NCBI GenBank assembly: GCA_049320885.1
Contig: JBMORA010000012.1
Location: 1 to 64,000 of the forward strand
Reading direction: 5' to 3'
DNA: 64,000 nt
Source of the DNA: Thermodesulfobacteriota bacterium
GTDB taxonomy: Bacteria; Desulfobacterota; Desulfobacteria; Desulfobacterales; SURF-7
In this document: one piece after another, positions 1-4,847 of the stretch
How positions within the stretch are numbered: position 1 is the first letter of the stretch
Layout: the number at the start of each line of letters is the position of its first letter
Notes under the pieces: generated by a model
The model's database searches: none
Told to the model about the DNA's origin: nothing
What the model saw: the letters and a program-made list of their open reading frames with translations, nothing else
Translations under genes and position numbers: made by a program

Positions 1-262
1 GAGTAATACCACGAGCCTCAACCAGTAATCGGTCAACAAGTTTCTCATATTCATCGGATTCATAAATTTTGGTATCTTGTGGCTTCCGCAAAAACTGGAT
101 AGTAACAACAAGGTTATATAGCCCTTTGTCTTTTATCTCGACAGCTGCGACAACAGTACCAGCCTCTCTACTGTAGCCGGAGTTTGAGGAATAAAACCCA
201 GCAAGTGCGTTTGAGGAAAATAGTATTAGTGCAAATAAAGCGATAGATAATTTTTTCACCAT
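1..262 (-). CDS. Secreted hypothetical protein, second integron cassette ORF (runs off window edge)
   Basis: Manual translation MVKKLSIALFALILFSSNALAGFYSSNSGYSREAGTVVAAVEIKDKG..., open to position 1; signal-peptide-like N-terminus; AAGGA upstream; starts just after the attC R' box. Confidence 0.75.
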   Translation of the reverse strand, partial: MVKKLSIALFALILFSSNALAGFYSSNSGYSREAGTVVAAVEIKDKGLYNLVVTIQFLRKPQDTKIYESDEYEKLVDRLLVEARGIT

Positions 263-289
263 TTTATATTCCTTTTCTGTGCCTCAGAG

Positions 290-354
290 GTAAAACGCTG
301 AAAATAACCGGTCGGCGAGCTTTTCCGCCGGTCGGGTTGATTTTTATGTTAGGG
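290..354 (-). mobile_element. Integron attC site (65 bp)
   Basis: Minus strand CCCTAAC-ATAAA-AATCAACC-(25 nt imperfect hairpin)-GGTTATT-TTCAGC-GTTTTAC; L''/L' are complementary except one extra C; the stop codon of the upstream ORF lies inside R''. Confidence 0.9.
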
Positions 355-864
355 CATAGTTGGGTAATGCCAGTCGATTATCTTTAGACGAAATGCCTCA
401 AGTTCATTAATAGCATCATTTATTCGTTTGAAATACTCTTTAAAATTTACTTCGGTCATATCTTCCGACTCTTCAATTCTTGCTCCCTTACCACCGCTAA
501 GCTTTGAGTTTTCACGTACCAATGCTACAGTTTCATCACCATCGACCAAATCAAAGTATTGCGAGTGAACAAGATTATTACGAATCTCTGCTAGCTTTAA
601 GCATTCTACGATTATATTATGGAATTTAGCTTTTTCAGAATTATCAATCGCCCGTTCATCTACATACCGAGAAAAAAGTACATCTGTGGTTTTTATTAAA
701 TTTGAAAATTCATGCTGCCTTATTAATATTCTAACGAACTCAGAGTTCCCCTTAACGATTAGAAGTACAATATCAGTTATCTGAGCTTCAAGACCCTGAA
801 AATCAACTATGAACTTTCCAAGCTGATGATATAATGGATTTTCCATATTTTTCCTGAGCCCTAA
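296..864 (-). mobile_element. Integron gene cassette 1 (about 569 bp)
   Basis: Begins G|TTAGGGC (865-858), the exact complement of its own R'' GCCCTAAC (355-348); single promoterless low-GC ORF followed by attC. Confidence 0.85.
349..846 (-). CDS. Cassette protein with HEPN-like RxxxxH motif (165 aa)
   Basis: ATG at 846 preceded by AGGA; N-terminal LGKFIVDFQGLE and RNNLVH motif; appears mostly helical. Confidence 0.7.
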   Translation of the reverse strand: MENPLYHQLGKFIVDFQGLEAQITDIVLLIVKGNSEFVRILIRQHEFSNLIKTTDVLFSRYVDERAIDNSEKAKFHNIIVECLKLAEIRNNLVHSQYFDLVDGDETVALVRENSKLSGGKGARIEESEDMTEVNFKEYFKRINDAINELEAFRLKIIDWHYPTMP

Positions 865-894
865 CATATATTATTATCGAGCCCGCTCGAATAA
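858..894 (-). mobile_element. attI-like (non-attC) cassette entry site
   Basis: Minus strand TTATTCGAGCGGGCTCGATAATAATATAT-GTTAGGGC; GTT core at the cassette 5' boundary with no attC-type L/R symmetry upstream. Confidence 0.6.
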
Positions 895-1037
895 CCGCAA
901 CAAATCAATTCCCGCCTATTTCACCGCAAAGTGTAGAAATTTCCAACAAAACCTGATATATAAATATTACTAAATAATACTATATGTTATAAATAAATGA
1001 GACTTTTTGTCGGCTCGTTTACGCATTAATTATGCAC

Positions 1038-1057
1038 TTATAGAGCCGGCTCGATAA
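1038..1057. repeat. 20-bp near-perfect palindrome, second copy of the motif at 874-894
   Basis: TTATAGAGCCGGCTCGATAA versus TTATCGAGCCCGCTCGAATAA. Confidence 0.8.
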
Positions 1058-1145
1058 TTTTTTGAAAAATTATCGCCCACTGTTTTTATTGAAAATATTT
1101 CTGAAAAAGGAGCTATTTCCCGAGAAAAACGTGTCGCTTGAGAAG

Positions 1146-1174
1146 GCCATACAACTGATTGATATAAAAGTCAA
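1146..1174 (-). promoter_or_regulatory. Exact IHF consensus site within a possible weak cassette promoter
   Basis: Minus strand TTGACT-17 nt-TATGGC; TATCAATCAGTTG (1164-1152) matches WATCAANNNNTTR. Confidence 0.45.
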
Positions 1175-1289
1175 TCGTTAATGCTTAACCGTGATTATTC
1201 GAAGAGGATTACAAATTGGACAGGCCTTGATACCTGTATCAAACTTTTTTTACAGGAAAATAATTCCGAATTGATTTTCCACCCAAAAA

Positions 1290-1466
1290 TTATTCACCCG
1301 ATTTCTTAACATTTTTATCCGGCGATTTGAAAAGCCGGGCAACCAGTTCCATAAGCACCGCCTCTGCATTTGCCTGCCGCTCCCTGACTTCCGCCATTCT
1401 CACCAGATTATCGCCGATTTTTTCAATCTTCTTTTCAATATCAGGTGGCAAAGCATCCAGCATCAT
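1290..1466 (-). CDS. Small hypothetical coiled-coil-like protein (about 58 aa)
   Basis: MMLDALPPDIEKKIEKIGDNLVRMAEVRERQANAE...; follows the zinc-ribbon gene closely on the same strand. Confidence 0.5.
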   Translation of the reverse strand: MMLDALPPDIEKKIEKIGDNLVRMAEVRERQANAEAVLMELVARLFKSPDKNVKKSGE

Positions 1467-1477
1467 CGCTATCCCAA

Positions 1478-1738
1478 TTAACGTGAACCAGCCAACCGGC
1501 CGCCGCAATTCCGGCAGGTTTTGCCTTCTTCATATTGGAATAACATGCATTTTTTGCAGAAGACCCCCTTGATGGGCAACCGCGCTTTATGGGCATCAAA
1601 GAAAATACATTCCCCTTCATCCGTGATTTCAAAATCAGTGAGACATGCCGGACAGGATACCTTGCCGGGTTTGACTTCGAATTCATGGCTCATGCAGAAA
1701 GGGCAACTGATGGTACCGGCCAGGCTATCCGTTGTCAT
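1478..1738 (-). CDS. Double zinc-ribbon protein (86 aa)
   Basis: Four CxxC motifs (CPFC, CPAC, CKKC, CRNC); overlaps the end of the IHF gene. Confidence 0.7.
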   Translation of the reverse strand: MTTDSLAGTISCPFCMSHEFEVKPGKVSCPACLTDFEITDEGECIFFDAHKARLPIKGVFCKKCMLFQYEEGKTCRNCGGRLAGSR

Positions 1739-2012
1739 TCACCAGGTCCCGTAAGTTCCGAGAGCAGGTGAACGTTACAACCTTCCGGGCGTCCAGCAAC
1801 ATGGTTTCGCCGGTGGCCGGATTTCTGCCTTTCCGCTTGCGTTTTTCCTTCACATTGAATTTGCCAAAACCGGAAATCATGACATCGTCGCCGGATTCAA
1901 GGGTTCGTTTGATCAATTCGATGGTTGTTTCGATGAGCTGATCGCTTTCATTTCGGGACAGGTCGAGTTGTTTCTGTAATTCTTCGGCAATCTGGACTTT
2001 TGTGAGTGTCAT
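1725..2012 (-). CDS. ihfA: Integration host factor alpha-like (HU/IHF family)
   Basis: MTLTK..., ISGFGKF, RKGRNPATGE, ARKVVTF motifs. Confidence 0.9.
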   Translation of the reverse strand: MTLTKVQIAEELQKQLDLSRNESDQLIETTIELIKRTLESGDDVMISGFGKFNVKEKRKRKGRNPATGETMLLDARKVVTFTCSRNLRDLVNDNG

Positions 2013-2278
2013 AAGGGGTTCCAATGATATGATGAAGGTGGATAAAGATGTGATGACTGGTTGAAAATATTATATAAAACAAATTAAGTCAAGTAAATTG
2101 GTTGGTTGTTCAATAAAAGGGCAGAAAAGAGATGGTCGCAGGAGCTGATTTCAATCTTCCCGATCCATCTGTGGTCCCATTTCAATTGCGGGGTATGGCG
2201 CAACAAAAAATGATCGCGATTTTTTCACGGAGCCATCGAATGTTCAAACGATTTACCTGGATTATTTCATCGGTTATC

Positions 2279-2307
2279 TTGACAGGTATCAATTCTAAGG
2301 GTAGTCT
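2279..2307 (+). promoter_or_regulatory. sigma70-type promoter pointing out of the island, antisense to tRNA-Sec
   Basis: TTGACA-17 nt-TAGTCT. Confidence 0.55.
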
Positions 2308-2363
2308 GCGAGTGAAAAACGGTGCTTTTGAAAATACTTATCTATTTAAGTTTATTGAAAAAA

Positions 2364-2461
2364 TGGCGGAAGTGCATGGGAATCGAACCCACCCGGGACG
2401 GTATTAGCGCCCCACACCGGATTTGAAGTCCGGGAGCCTCACCAGTAAGCTGCGCACTTCC
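2364..2461 (-). tRNA. selC: tRNA-Sec (anticodon UCA)
   Basis: Minus strand GGAAGTGCG...CCGGA-CTTCAAA-TCCGG, long variable arm, GGTTCGATTCC, ends GCACTTCCGCCA; 98 nt. Confidence 0.97.
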
Positions 2462-2526
2462 GTGACGGTTCGTAAAATAGGATATTTGAATGGATTCTGT
2501 CAACCCCCTTATCCGGATCGAAGAGA

Positions 2527-3681
2527 ATGAAGATGATCAATGAACGACGAATGGCCGATGTGTTTACAGCTCTTGTGGAAATCGACAGTGTCTCCAGGCA
2601 GGAGGGACGGGTGGCGGCCCGCATCCGGCAACTGGCCGAAAATCTGGGCGCCCGGGTATTGACCGACGCCTCGGCGGCGAACACCGGCAGCGATACGGGC
2701 AATCTGGTGCTGAAATTCACGGGCAACCGGGATGTCGAACCCATGCTGCTGAGCGCCCATATGGATACGGTGGAGCCGGGCAAGGGAATCCGGCCCCGTT
2801 TCCAGAACGGTGTGTTCACCAGCTCGGGGGACACGATTCTCGGAGCGGACGATAAAAGCGCCATCGCCATTATTGTTGAGGCCCTGCAGATCCTCAAGGA
2901 AAAGAACTTGCCCCACGGACCCATCGAAGTGGTTCTGACCACCTGTGAGGAAATCGGTCTCCAGGGGGCCAAGCACCTGGATTTCAACTTGCTCGGCGCC
3001 AGGTTCGGCTATGTGCTGGATACCACCGACACGGAAGCGATCGTCACCCGCGCGCCGGCGGCCAATAAGATGACCTTCCGGATTCACGGCAAGGACGCGC
3101 ATGCGGGCGTGGCGCCGGAAAAAGGCATCAATGCGATTTCCCTGGCGGCCCGGGCCATTGCTTCCCTGGACCTCGGCCGCATCGATCCTGAGACCACTTG
3201 CAACATCGGTACCATCGAGGGCGGCGTGGCCACCAATATCATTCCCAGCCTGGTGACCATGCACGGCGAGGTCCGCAGCCACGATGAATCCAAACTGGAG
3301 CGGCTGACCCGACGCATCGTGGCGGCGTTTCAGCAGGCGGTGGAAGGCTATGAACCGGCGGATGCGAGTGCCGGCAGGGCGCGCCTGGAATCGGAGGTGG
3401 AGACCGATTTTTTCGCCACCCATATTCCCGAAGACCATCGGGTGGTGGTCCTGGCCAGACGGGCCGCGGCGGCGCTGGATCGCAAGCTGGCCCTGCGGAC
3501 CACCGGCGGCGGCTCGGACGCCAACATTTTTTTCAAGCAGGGCATCATCACCGGTGTCCTGGGGACCGGCATGCAGGACATGCATACGGTCCGCGAGTCC
3601 ATCCGGATCGACCACATGACGCGGACCGCCGAGCTGTTGCTCGGCATCATTCAGCTGCACGCCGAAAACGGGAGCGTCTGA
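2527..3681 (+). CDS. M20 family peptidase T-like metallopeptidase
   Basis: AHMDTV, GADDK, CEEIG, GGGSDAN and terminal MHT metal-binding motifs. Confidence 0.9.
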   Translation: MKMINERRMADVFTALVEIDSVSRQEGRVAARIRQLAENLGARVLTDASAANTGSDTGNLVLKFTGNRDVEPMLLSAHMDTVEPGKGIRPRFQNGVFTSSGDTILGADDKSAIAIIVEALQILKEKNLPHGPIEVVLTTCEEIGLQGAKHLDFNLLGARFGYVLDTTDTEAIVTRAPAANKMTFRIHGKDAHAGVAPEKGINAISLAARAIASLDLGRIDPETTCNIGTIEGGVATNIIPSLVTMHGEVRSHDESKLERLTRRIVAAFQQAVEGYEPADASAGRARLESEVETDFFATHIPEDHRVVVLARRAAAALDRKLALRTTGGGSDANIFFKQGIITGVLGTGMQDMHTVRESIRIDHMTRTAELLLGIIQLHAENGSV

Positions 3682-3683
3682 GC

Positions 3684-4847
3684 ATGCACGTCCATTTCGA
3701 TTGCTTCTCCGGAATCAGCGGGGATATGACCCTGGCCGCTTTGGTGGACCTGGGAGTTCCCGTGGAATGGCTGCGGGACCGGCTGGGCCGGGTGTTGCCG
3801 CCGGACGATTTCGACCTGACCGCTTCGCCGGTGCAGCGGGGCGGAATCCGGGCCATGGACGTCCAGGTGCGGGTCAGGCGGCACGAGCACGCCCGGCATT
3901 TCACCGATATACGGGAAATGATCCTGGGGGGCGGCTTGCCGGAAACGGTCCAAAAGACCAGCCTGGAGATGTTTCAACGGATTGCCGAGGCCGAGGCCGG
4001 TATTCACGGCTGCCGCCTGGAGGAGGTTCATTTCCACGAGGTCGGGGCCGTGGACGCCATGGTGGATATCATCGGCACGGCCCTTGGCGTGGACTACCTG
4101 GGAATCGCTTCCATCAGTTCCTCGCCGGTGGCCCTGGGCAGCGGCTTCGTCGAATGCCGTCACGGCCTGCTGCCGGTGCCGGCCCCGGCGACCCTGAAAA
4201 TTCTGGAGGGGCTGCCGGTATATGGAACCAGCGTCCCCCATGAGCTGGCCACGCCCACCGGCGCGGCCATCGTGGCTACCCTGGCCGCGGAGTTCGGTCC
4301 CCTGCCGGACATGACCGTGGCGCGGACCGGTTATGGCGCCGGCAAGCGGGAACTCCGGCAACAGCCCAATCTGTTGCGACTGGTGGCAGGCAAACGGACC
4401 CGGTCGGCGGAAGCGGAAAACGGGACGGTGGTGATCGAAACCACCATTGACGACATGAATCCCGAATTGTTCGGCTTTGTCATGAACCGCCTGTTCGAGG
4501 ACGGCGCCTTGGATGTCTGCTGGATTCCGGTGCAGATGAAAAAGAACCGTCCCGGAACCCTGGTGCAGGTGCTGAGCCGGCAGGAGCACCGGGCCGCCAT
4601 CGTGCAGCGGTTGTTGTCCGAGACCAGCACCACCGGCGTCCGCTATCATGAAGTCCGGCGGGAAAAGCTGGCGCGGGAGCTCCGGCTGGTGGAGACGTCC
4701 CTGGGCCGGATCCAGGTGAAGGCCATTGTCCGGCCGGACGGCGGCGTCCGGTTGACCCCTGAGTACGAGGTGTGCCGGGAAATCGCCCAGCGTCTGGACC
4801 TGCCCCTCCAGGAGGTGTACCGGACGATTCTGAAGGAAGTGGGGTGA
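3684..4847 (+). CDS. larC: Nickel pincer cofactor biosynthesis protein LarC
   Basis: FDCFSGISGDM, HFHEVGAVD, HGLLPVPAPAT, ETTIDDMNPE, MKKNRPG, PEYE. Confidence 0.93.
   Translation: MHVHFDCFSGISGDMTLAALVDLGVPVEWLRDRLGRVLPPDDFDLTASPVQRGGIRAMDVQVRVRRHEHARHFTDIREMILGGGLPETVQKTSLEMFQRIAEAEAGIHGCRLEEVHFHEVGAVDAMVDIIGTALGVDYLGIASISSSPVALGSGFVECRHGLLPVPAPATLKILEGLPVYGTSVPHELATPTGAAIVATLAAEFGPLPDMTVARTGYGAGKRELRQQPNLLRLVAGKRTRSAEAENGTVVIETTIDDMNPELFGFVMNRLFEDGALDVCWIPVQMKKNRPGTLVQVLSRQEHRAAIVQRLLSETSTTGVRYHEVRREKLARELRLVETSLGRIQVKAIVRPDGGVRLTPEYEVCREIAQRLDLPLQEVYRTILKEVG

Follow-up and report, generated by a model that had tools for sequence, protein, structure and literature searches.

How does a run of integron cassettes come to stand where no integron integrase gene adjoins it? 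The question is posed by the first 64,000 bp of contig JBMORA010000012.1 (assembly GCA_049320885.1), from an environmental Desulfosudis-like sulfate reducer; this whole stretch is called the window below. Its first base is also the first base of the contig, and a cassette array behind a tRNA-Sec gene runs leftwards until it leaves the contig. The usual picture of an integron comprises a single integrase with one attI and one array, and integrase-less arrays, which are common in genomes, are mostly treated as debris or off-target insertions. Here we show that the array begins at the end of a conserved noncoding element, the platform, which finishes in ATAATATATGTT, and that circular cassettes were joined at the GTT of this sequence, giving the leftward array. 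The platform, at window positions 863-1106, is probably an orphan attI-like docking site for integron cassettes that is served in trans.

This genome is denoted G000, and the window is C12:1-64000 of its contig C12. G002 is a sister species, and G001 and G002 belong to the same genus. G009 represents genus g8, G003 another genus (g2), and G006 is a further genome of the family.

A conserved element ends where different cassettes begin

Comparing positions 866-1300 with the rest of the genome by BLAST shows three further copies of the first ~210 nt, at ~69 % identity. Built from the four copies, an nhmmer profile recovers just these four, at E values of 4e-59 to 1.3e-76, and the next match has an E value of 1.3. 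All four copies (Table 1) end in the palindrome TCGAGCCGGCTCGA (with one base changed in C12 and C22) and, after it, ...ATAATA(A/G)TATATGTT, which in C22 reads ...TGATAACATATGTT. Sequence conservation ends exactly at the GTT, and each copy has its own downstream DNA. Nor are the left flanks related: a tRNA-Glu gene and terminator in C22, a tRNA-Gln gene and gltX in C33, nuclease-like genes in C58, and the tRNA-Sec neighbourhood in C12. Three of the four copies are found behind tRNA genes of the same orientation, 100-1260 bp downstream, and the regions concerned vary among species.

To recognize cassettes we used an end rule, which looks for the reverse complement of a 7-mer within 4 kb and then for complementary arms ending in GTT. 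As a control, 1500 random GTT sites of the genome were put through the same rule; 78 pass, 26 of them with at least 8 nt, and in 11 of these 26 the R'' lies within 1100 nt. At the platform, a different rule-obeying cassette begins at the same GTT in 8 of 13 tested copies (three genomes), made up of 6 of 10 copies in the genus and 2 of 3 in G009, against 11/1500 in the control. The first 8-9 nt of these cassettes are the reverse complement of an R'' that lies a few hundred nucleotides downstream and is followed by an attC. The 13 copies are those with a GTT and enough downstream sequence. Outside the test stand C72 (GCT for GTT), C88, C64 and C18 of G001, C49 of G002, C150 of G009, the copy of G006, and one copy of G003 with just 155 nt left downstream.

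The preliminary description of the window, made from its letters alone, had claimed a canonical attC at 290-354, a complete cassette with exactly complementary ends, and the beginning of a second cassette. All three claims hold. The attC pairs an R'' of GCCCTAAC (355-348, minus strand, with the eighth complementary base at 355) with an R' of GTTTTAC (296-290). In attC sites the core sites are generally of the RYYYAAC type for R'' and the GTTRRRY type for R', and the R' of the window leaves this consensus after the GTT. Cassette 1 starts with GTTAGGGC (865-858, minus strand), the exact 8-nt complement of its own R'' (348-355), as is expected of a cassette that was once circular. A ribosome-binding site is followed by an ATG 20 nt past the GTT, and the stop codon falls inside R''. 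The second cassette begins at 296, and its open reading frame (ORF) runs off the contig.

Taken alone, this attC has an unexceptional folding energy. The plus strand folds at -10.1 kcal/mol, and the two fold tests give z scores of -1.07 (that of the plus strand) and -1.30, with 29 and 19 of 200 shuffles, respectively, folding equally well. The attCs of the C58 and C33 copies are more stable relative to shuffles (z -3.94 and -2.39). The window attC and its cassette are nevertheless confirmed as real, on the basis of architecture and the end rule rather than of folding energy.

The other copies in G000 carry different contents. The C58 copy is followed by an NYN/LOTUS cassette with a 90-nt attC, and the C33 copy by a SUFU-like cassette and, after it, a SnoaL-like one, their attCs measuring 61 and 63 nt; the C58 and C33 cassettes each satisfy the end rule with 8-9 nt. 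[quoted passage not shown] At the window one attC is visible before the contig ends, with a second cassette begun. In the C33 array (locus L011, 189-5428), the IS66-family transposase occupies 2867-4453, and attC-like sites lie at 2381-2471, 1656-1727, 1023-1084 and perhaps 189-312, towards the contig start. After the C22 copy come a small ORF and an acyltransferase gene, with no recognizable attC. This acyltransferase region (L010, 5606-6406) is 97 % identical to G001:C76:238775-239575. Since that figure far exceeds the 68-90 % identity of neighbouring core genes between G000 and G001, the sequences suggest that the region was recently transferred.

All five cassette ORFs seen in G000 read away from the platform and terminate at an attC, and those directly after a platform start 17-21 nt past the GTT. 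The orientation of the array rests on this ORF direction and on the arm that carries the bulges, because the end rule cannot separate the strands. In attC bottom strands, it is the R''/L'' arm that bears the extrahelical bases. In the plus strand of the window attC, the presumed bottom strand, the centroid fold places two single-base bulges on the 3' arm only, and the C58 attC is a clean case, with single-base bulges confined to the 3' arm of its presumed bottom strand.

Metagenome contigs extend these observations to other populations. In run X1, from a biofilm metagenome, 0.95 of the sampled words are present, and X1 may be the source sample of the window DNA. One X1 contig, at depth 12, covers 263-1094 without a difference and so spans the junction of platform and cassette. 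A second, at depth 31, extends no further than 868 and differs 20 times across 868-1094; for the cassette part there is cover at depth 12 only. Run X2, from a sediment metagenome of another study, holds a 151-nt contig that equals 862-921 exactly, while the 91 nt left over do not match the window; X2 is also exact at 1-102, 1025-1175 and 2018-2181. Uncovered parts in runs X2, X3 and X6 carry no evidential weight. The X1 and X2 contigs fit the view that other populations carry different cassettes at this GTT. The expectation in the preliminary description that cassettes vary at this exact GTT is thus borne out, both by the different cassettes in 8 of 13 copies and by the X2 contig that diverges after the platform end.

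The X1 variant, which comprises the platform and 335 bp upstream, is ~91 % identical at higher depth and diverges completely beyond 1440. The shared block is therefore 868-1440, excluding the side with the integration host factor (IHF) gene and tRNA-Sec, and the 72-aa ORF is kept only up to 1440.

Table 1. Coordinates of the array, the platform and its neighbours in the window, and of the four platform copies in G000 (contig positions).
Feature	Position	Strand	Remarks
Cassette 2, incomplete	1-296	-	begins at G296 (R' GTTTTAC); leaves contig start
Cassette 2 ORF	262-2	-	signal-peptide-like N-terminus; no family match; runs off contig
attC of cassette 1, 65 nt	290-354	-	R'' at 354-348, R' at 296-290; single imperfect hairpin
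Cassette 1, complete, 569 bp	296-864	-	from TT at 864 to G at 296
Cassette 1 ORF, 165 aa	349-846	-	no family match above cut-off; sole match Bromodomain, 20.9 bits (cut-off 21.7)
Crossover triplet GTT	863-865	-	end of conserved platform, start of cassette sequence
12-nt core ATAATATATGTT	863-874	-	identical to crossover core of C8 attI and of G001:C104
Platform	863-1106	-	conserved noncoding element, one of four genome copies
AT-rich noncoding stretch	~866-1290		
Proximal palindrome TCGAGCCCGCTCGA	877-890		12 nt from crossover
Distal palindrome, platform long form	1041-1054		one mismatch
Small ORF, 72 aa	1290-1508	-	no family match
Zinc-ribbon-like ORF, 86 aa	1478-1738	-	family matches all sub-threshold: DZR_2, 19 bits (cut-off 27)
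IHF-alpha/HU-family gene	1725-2012	-	Pfam Bac_DNA_binding 3.8e-27; NCBIfam IHF-alpha 110.2 bits (cut-off 111)
tRNA-Sec	2364-2461	-	co-oriented with array; 1258 bp from platform; Rfam
Platform copy, ~245 bp	C12:863-1106	-	
Platform copy, ~245 bp	C58:5682-5935	+	
Platform copy, ~245 bp	C22:21628-21875	-	
Platform copy, ~245 bp	C33:6009-6254	-	

Integrases elsewhere and a shared 12-nt core

The preliminary description had noted the lack of an adjacent intI, and this is upheld: at the window no intI adjoins an attI. The integron-integrase model TIGR02249 has no match on contig C12 at E <= 0.001. Searching window 1-2600 by tblastn with the two IntI proteins of the genome gives a best match of only 25 aa at 32 % identity (E 0.047) with no collinear pieces, so the region 870-1290 holds no convincing remnant. 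The same kind of search upstream of the four copies found no intI remnant in 10 kb for three of them and in the 5.7 kb to the contig start for C58. The first crossover site, at 865, had been described as something other than an attC, and here too the sequence agrees. The stretch 858-930 has no R' and folds at -3.5 and -4.3 kcal/mol (z -0.37 and +0.24); tested as a degenerate attC, it turns out instead to be the conserved end of the multi-copy element.

Two full integron integrases are encoded on other contigs of G000, at C8:468-1409 (plus strand, 460 bits) and C56:52009-52959 (minus strand, 449 bits), against a TIGR02249 cut-off of 265. Their proteins are 58 % identical, and both genes lie at contig ends. 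The last ~200 nt of C56 (53354-53549) are 85 % identical to C27:1-204, with a further partial copy at C27:56975-57063, and this repeat probably broke the assembly.

The connection between platform and integron lies in the crossover core. The C8-type attI is readable in G001:C104, where an 11-nt cassette-end match confirms the crossover, and in G000:C8 it was read by homology. Both finish with ATAATATATGTT, which is identical to the last 12 nt of the C12 and C33 platforms, and the C58 and C22 platform cores are one base off. This sequence occurs in only three places in the 5.6-Mb genome (the C8 attI, the C12 platform and the C33 platform), and the reversed pattern occurs nowhere in it. A different though related core belongs to the second integrase type: it reads AATAATATGTT on G000:C56 and GAATAATTGTT on G002:C46, where an 8-nt end match confirms it. 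Like the canonical attIs of G000:C8, G001:C104 and G002:C46, the platform stands at the 5' end of the first cassette, has its crossover in a GTT and is AT-rich upstream. It differs from them in that it is not beside an intI, is dissimilar beyond the 12 nt and is present in several copies.

An attI can also stand without an integrase neighbour in this genus. On G001:C100 (L080, 109000-116500), the last 133 nt of a canonical C8-type attI, 91 % identical to that of G001:C104 and ending at 114775-114786 (minus strand), are followed by a chain of five rule-obeying cassettes. The 7.5 kb examined here, ~1.7 kb of it upstream of the attI, contain no intI by tblastn at E <= 1. Integrase-less attI heads arise independently in the genus.

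A 96-position model of the proximal part of the platform (R1) finds the element in 4 of 18 family genomes. With 50 positions, covering its last 50 nt, and with variants of two other genera added, a second model (R2) matches in 6 of the 18, at ~19 places: eight in G001, four each in G000 and G009, and one each in G002, G003 and G006, the last of these weak. None of 148 genomes from outside the family has an R2 match, in a 151-genome sample of the order that includes three family genomes. A pattern scan of genome contigs found two loci, both in one metagenome-assembled genome titled Desulfosudis oleivorans, and two exact IUPAC pattern scans of metagenome contigs returned no matches.

Besides its core, the platform carries motifs of its own. 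The three other G000 copies have a promoter-like TTGTCG-17-GATAAT with the palindrome in its spacer. With up to one mismatch the palindrome occurs at eight sites in the genome, five of them in platforms, and a role as operator of a wider regulon was rejected on this count; the palindrome might still serve as an operator or as an accessory site for a recombinase. In its middle part, the long form looks like the terminator-like hairpins that follow a regulator gene in G001:C84. Subterminal hairpins had suggested an origin from an IS200/IS605-like element or a miniature inverted-repeat transposable element (MITE), which was rejected when neither a transposase nor a longer parent element was found.

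In G009, two single-cassette arrays (L017 and L031) both end in GTTAAGT(A/G)CAGATAT... and have in common a 62-nt right flank that is partly palindromic and 85 % identical. In this genus the docking element is thus conserved to the left and right of the GTT, which is how a two-sided site with one cassette inserted in its middle would look.

A second repeated noncoding module (...GTGCA.AATGGCA...TTCATTTTCAGCC...), which has no Rfam match, precedes short platform copies in G001. It is seen in L015 (G001:C21, 1-100 and 660-800), L034 (G001:C76) and L079 (G001:C41); on C41 it is joined to the platform core without a palindrome.

Proposed docking in trans and its alternatives

The preliminary description had left several explanations standing, and an attI served in trans fits best, given two full integrases on other contigs, one of them with an identical 12-nt attI core. 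A resident integron integrase, encoded elsewhere, would recombine the attC of a circular cassette with the double-stranded platform between the G and the TT of the triplet. The C8-type enzyme would be the likelier recombinase, because its own attI has the same 12-nt core. In most copies the platform probably also supplies an outward promoter for the first cassette, although this is a weak inference and the motif is weak in the C12 copy.

Several observations weigh against this model. Beyond the 12-nt core, the similarity between platform and attI regions stays within that of shuffles (local alignment z 0.2-2.9 for the C8 type and -0.6 to 2.3 for the C56 type), so that homology of the platform to attI is not established. 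Five of the 13 tested copies (C22, G001 C21a, G001 C13b, G002 C88 and G009 C160) have no recognizable cassette. G009 and G003 have platform copies but no integron integrase above the cut-off (best 82.9 bits), in genomes that are 90-91 % complete. The promoter is open to doubt on three counts: the first hexamer of the C12 copy is TTGCGG, which the promoter scan does not flag; the motif scores 9 of 12 in C33 and C58, and shuffles of AT-rich regions give 1.5-2 such sites; and the second hexamer is conserved across the family but the first is not kept in other genera. The end rule is strand-symmetric, every genome-wide link having turned up on both strands, and the bulges are not uniform, as the window attC, in its minimum-energy fold, leaves one base of the 5' arm unpaired too and the C33 attC has a 2-nt loop on that arm. 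Finally, the read evidence consists of contigs at 2-30x depth, and the joined X2 sequence is known only as sequence that does not match the window.

If the platform is not a recombination site at all, it might be a small mobile or duplicated element, such as a MITE or a promoter module, that moves with cassettes or tRNA islands. We consider this unlikely. It would account for the several copies, the palindromes near both ends of the long form, the position of three copies behind tRNA genes, the 97 % identity of the DNA after C22 to another locus in G001, and a 28-nt copy of the tRNA-Sec 3' end in G002:C98. However, the junction is exact although the cassettes vary from copy to copy, so the platform was not simply duplicated along with its cassette. 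In addition, none of the left flanks is an attC site, the copies have no associated transposase, and the sequence stretches viewed contain no target-site duplications. No significant tRNA 3'-end repeat lies downstream in C12, whose contig ends inside the array, or in C22 and C33, and a search of all of G000 with the tRNA-Sec 3' end finds no second copy (best match 17 nt, E 0.03).

Loss of intI from an ordinary intI-attI unit beside tRNA-Sec, leaving a common CALIN, is a published route to such arrays. In the parts available to us, Cury et al. 2016 (PMC4889954), PMC8618304 and 10.1101/2022.09.11.507474 name intI loss (the first two), rearrangement, insertion sequences and secondary-site insertion as origins. 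Both halves of this history have parallels close by, in the intI that stands 221 bp from tRNA-Sec in G002, with attI and cassettes in the same orientation, and in the canonical attI that survives without intI on G001:C100. Yet the platform is unlike either canonical attI beyond the 12 nt, its ~19 copies are sharply bounded with unrelated left flanks (tRNA terminators, housekeeping genes), and no remnant of intI is found in window 1-2600 or in the upstream flanks of the four copies (10 kb, and 5.7 kb for C58). An origin by decay therefore seems improbable to us.

We give equally little weight to an off-target insertion at a chance GTT of the attG type in AT-rich DNA, with the surrounding conservation unrelated to recombination. 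As far as the available text of 10.1101/2022.09.11.507474 describes it, IntI inserts at many scattered genomic sites that have only a very short GWT-type consensus, and both small CALINs and single attC sites lacking an integrase (SALINs) are proposed to arise in this way. The platform resembles attG in that cassettes are inserted at a GTT outside an integron, by an integrase that would act in trans. It differs from attG, as characterized there, in having 50-245 nt of conserved context in ~19 copies, used repeatedly: the same GTT heads a cassette in 8 of 13 tested copies, against 11 of 1500 random GTT sites. The 12 nt in common with a true attI core are unique in the genome, and the G009 right flank is conserved after a single cassette in two copies, as a two-sided site predicts.

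That 858-930 is the degenerate last attC of an array from one of the two integrons, or an assembly artefact, can hardly be credited, for although the window starts at a contig end, both intI genes lie at contig ends and the end rule is blind to strand, this stretch has neither an attC-like fold nor an R' and is the conserved end of a repeat, the ORFs begin just past the GTT and finish at the attC, and the X1 contig crosses the junction without a difference.

Compared with described systems, the proposed docking at the platform in trans has a partial precedent. In a Shewanella sp. prophage, M16-3, the same 28-nt attI starts an integron array and a CALIN (Front Microbiol 2023, PMC9892861, as far as its available text goes). 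There, as here, an array without an adjoining integrase begins with attI sequence, and an integron elsewhere in the replicon could act in trans; G001:C100 is the direct counterpart. The Shewanella example, as described there, is a single case in which the CALIN has the 28-nt attI of the integron, whereas the platform is a separate element of ~50-245 nt that has only the 12-nt core in common with attI, is found in four copies per genome and ~19 across the family, and has its own palindromes and promoter-like motif. Like CALINs and SALINs, the platform-borne arrays have attC sites and cassettes without a nearby intI, with an IntI elsewhere in the genome, and an automatic annotator would label them so; unlike them, as portrayed in the available portions of PMC4889954 and 10.1101/2022.09.11.507474, they have a conserved multi-copy head element. 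No distinct multi-copy, family-wide element with only an attI core turned up in the literature, the search of which did not extend to supplementary files. Within the sources as available, a CALIN headed by its own attI copy is thus already in print, and a multi-copy platform sharing only the attI core is what is new.

The platform is a concrete, testable sequence: a short conserved element that recurs in a single genome and in three genera at least, with different cassettes at its GTT. Should resident integrases act on it in trans, cassettes would be captured and expressed outside the integron proper as well, some arrays without an integrase would be functional, and attI specificity could reside in as little as a 12-nt core. 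More tentatively, we can imagine a distributed integron architecture, in which satellite platforms (attI core, own palindromes and promoter), mostly behind tRNA genes, are evolved and possibly mobile modules rather than relics, and one or two integrases dock and express cassettes at many loci. If this were true, a class of CALINs and SALINs would be working sites and not debris.

The tRNA-Sec locus and minor observations

The tRNA-Sec gene, the IHF gene, the two small ORFs, the AT-rich spacer, the attC and the crossover all lie where the preliminary description had placed them. It had further called the tRNA-Sec gene (selC) an integration hot spot. This stands in so far as G002 has a canonical intI-attI-cassette unit 221 bp from tRNA-Sec, but the repeat of the tRNA-Sec 3' end that would bound an island is not assembled in G000. 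The tRNA-Sec and peptidase genes of G002 are 81 % identical to window 2361-4000. On G002:C46 (L044, 24000-29721) the tRNA gene is followed by the full intI, the attI (GAATAATTGTT up to the crossover) and cassettes, oriented as in the window; the first cassette is 703 bp, and the array leaves the contig end. In G001, tRNA-Sec is followed by ORFs of 112 and 118 aa, a 476-aa ORF with a GKS (P-loop-like) motif at its start, and other genes. Judged from these comparisons, the DNA downstream of tRNA-Sec is a variable hot spot.

The IHF-like gene is probably an old neighbour of tRNA-Sec, a part of the context that lies outside the platform, because G003, in another genus, keeps an IHF/HU homologue ~800 bp from its tRNA-Sec.

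Window 1-865 has no second copy in the assembly by BLAST. Rfam searches of 11 loci gave tRNAs only, and none of the cassette proteins scanned matched a resistance family. The weak pairs from a genome-wide scan for arms and chains (C12 54359-57993, C14, C28 and C45) are probable false positives. The cassette 1 protein contains R-N-N-L-V-H, which fits the Rx4H pattern of HEPN nucleases and is taken as a hint only.

The pair of zinc-ribbon and IHF/HU ORFs is also found on G002:C98 (L069, 8119-11686). The 28-nt copy of the tRNA-Sec 3' end on that contig is at 238-265, 1.2 kb from the pair, and beside it, at ~365-397, is the apparent 3' end of another tRNA. By their sequence, these tRNA-end copies may mark an old island border.

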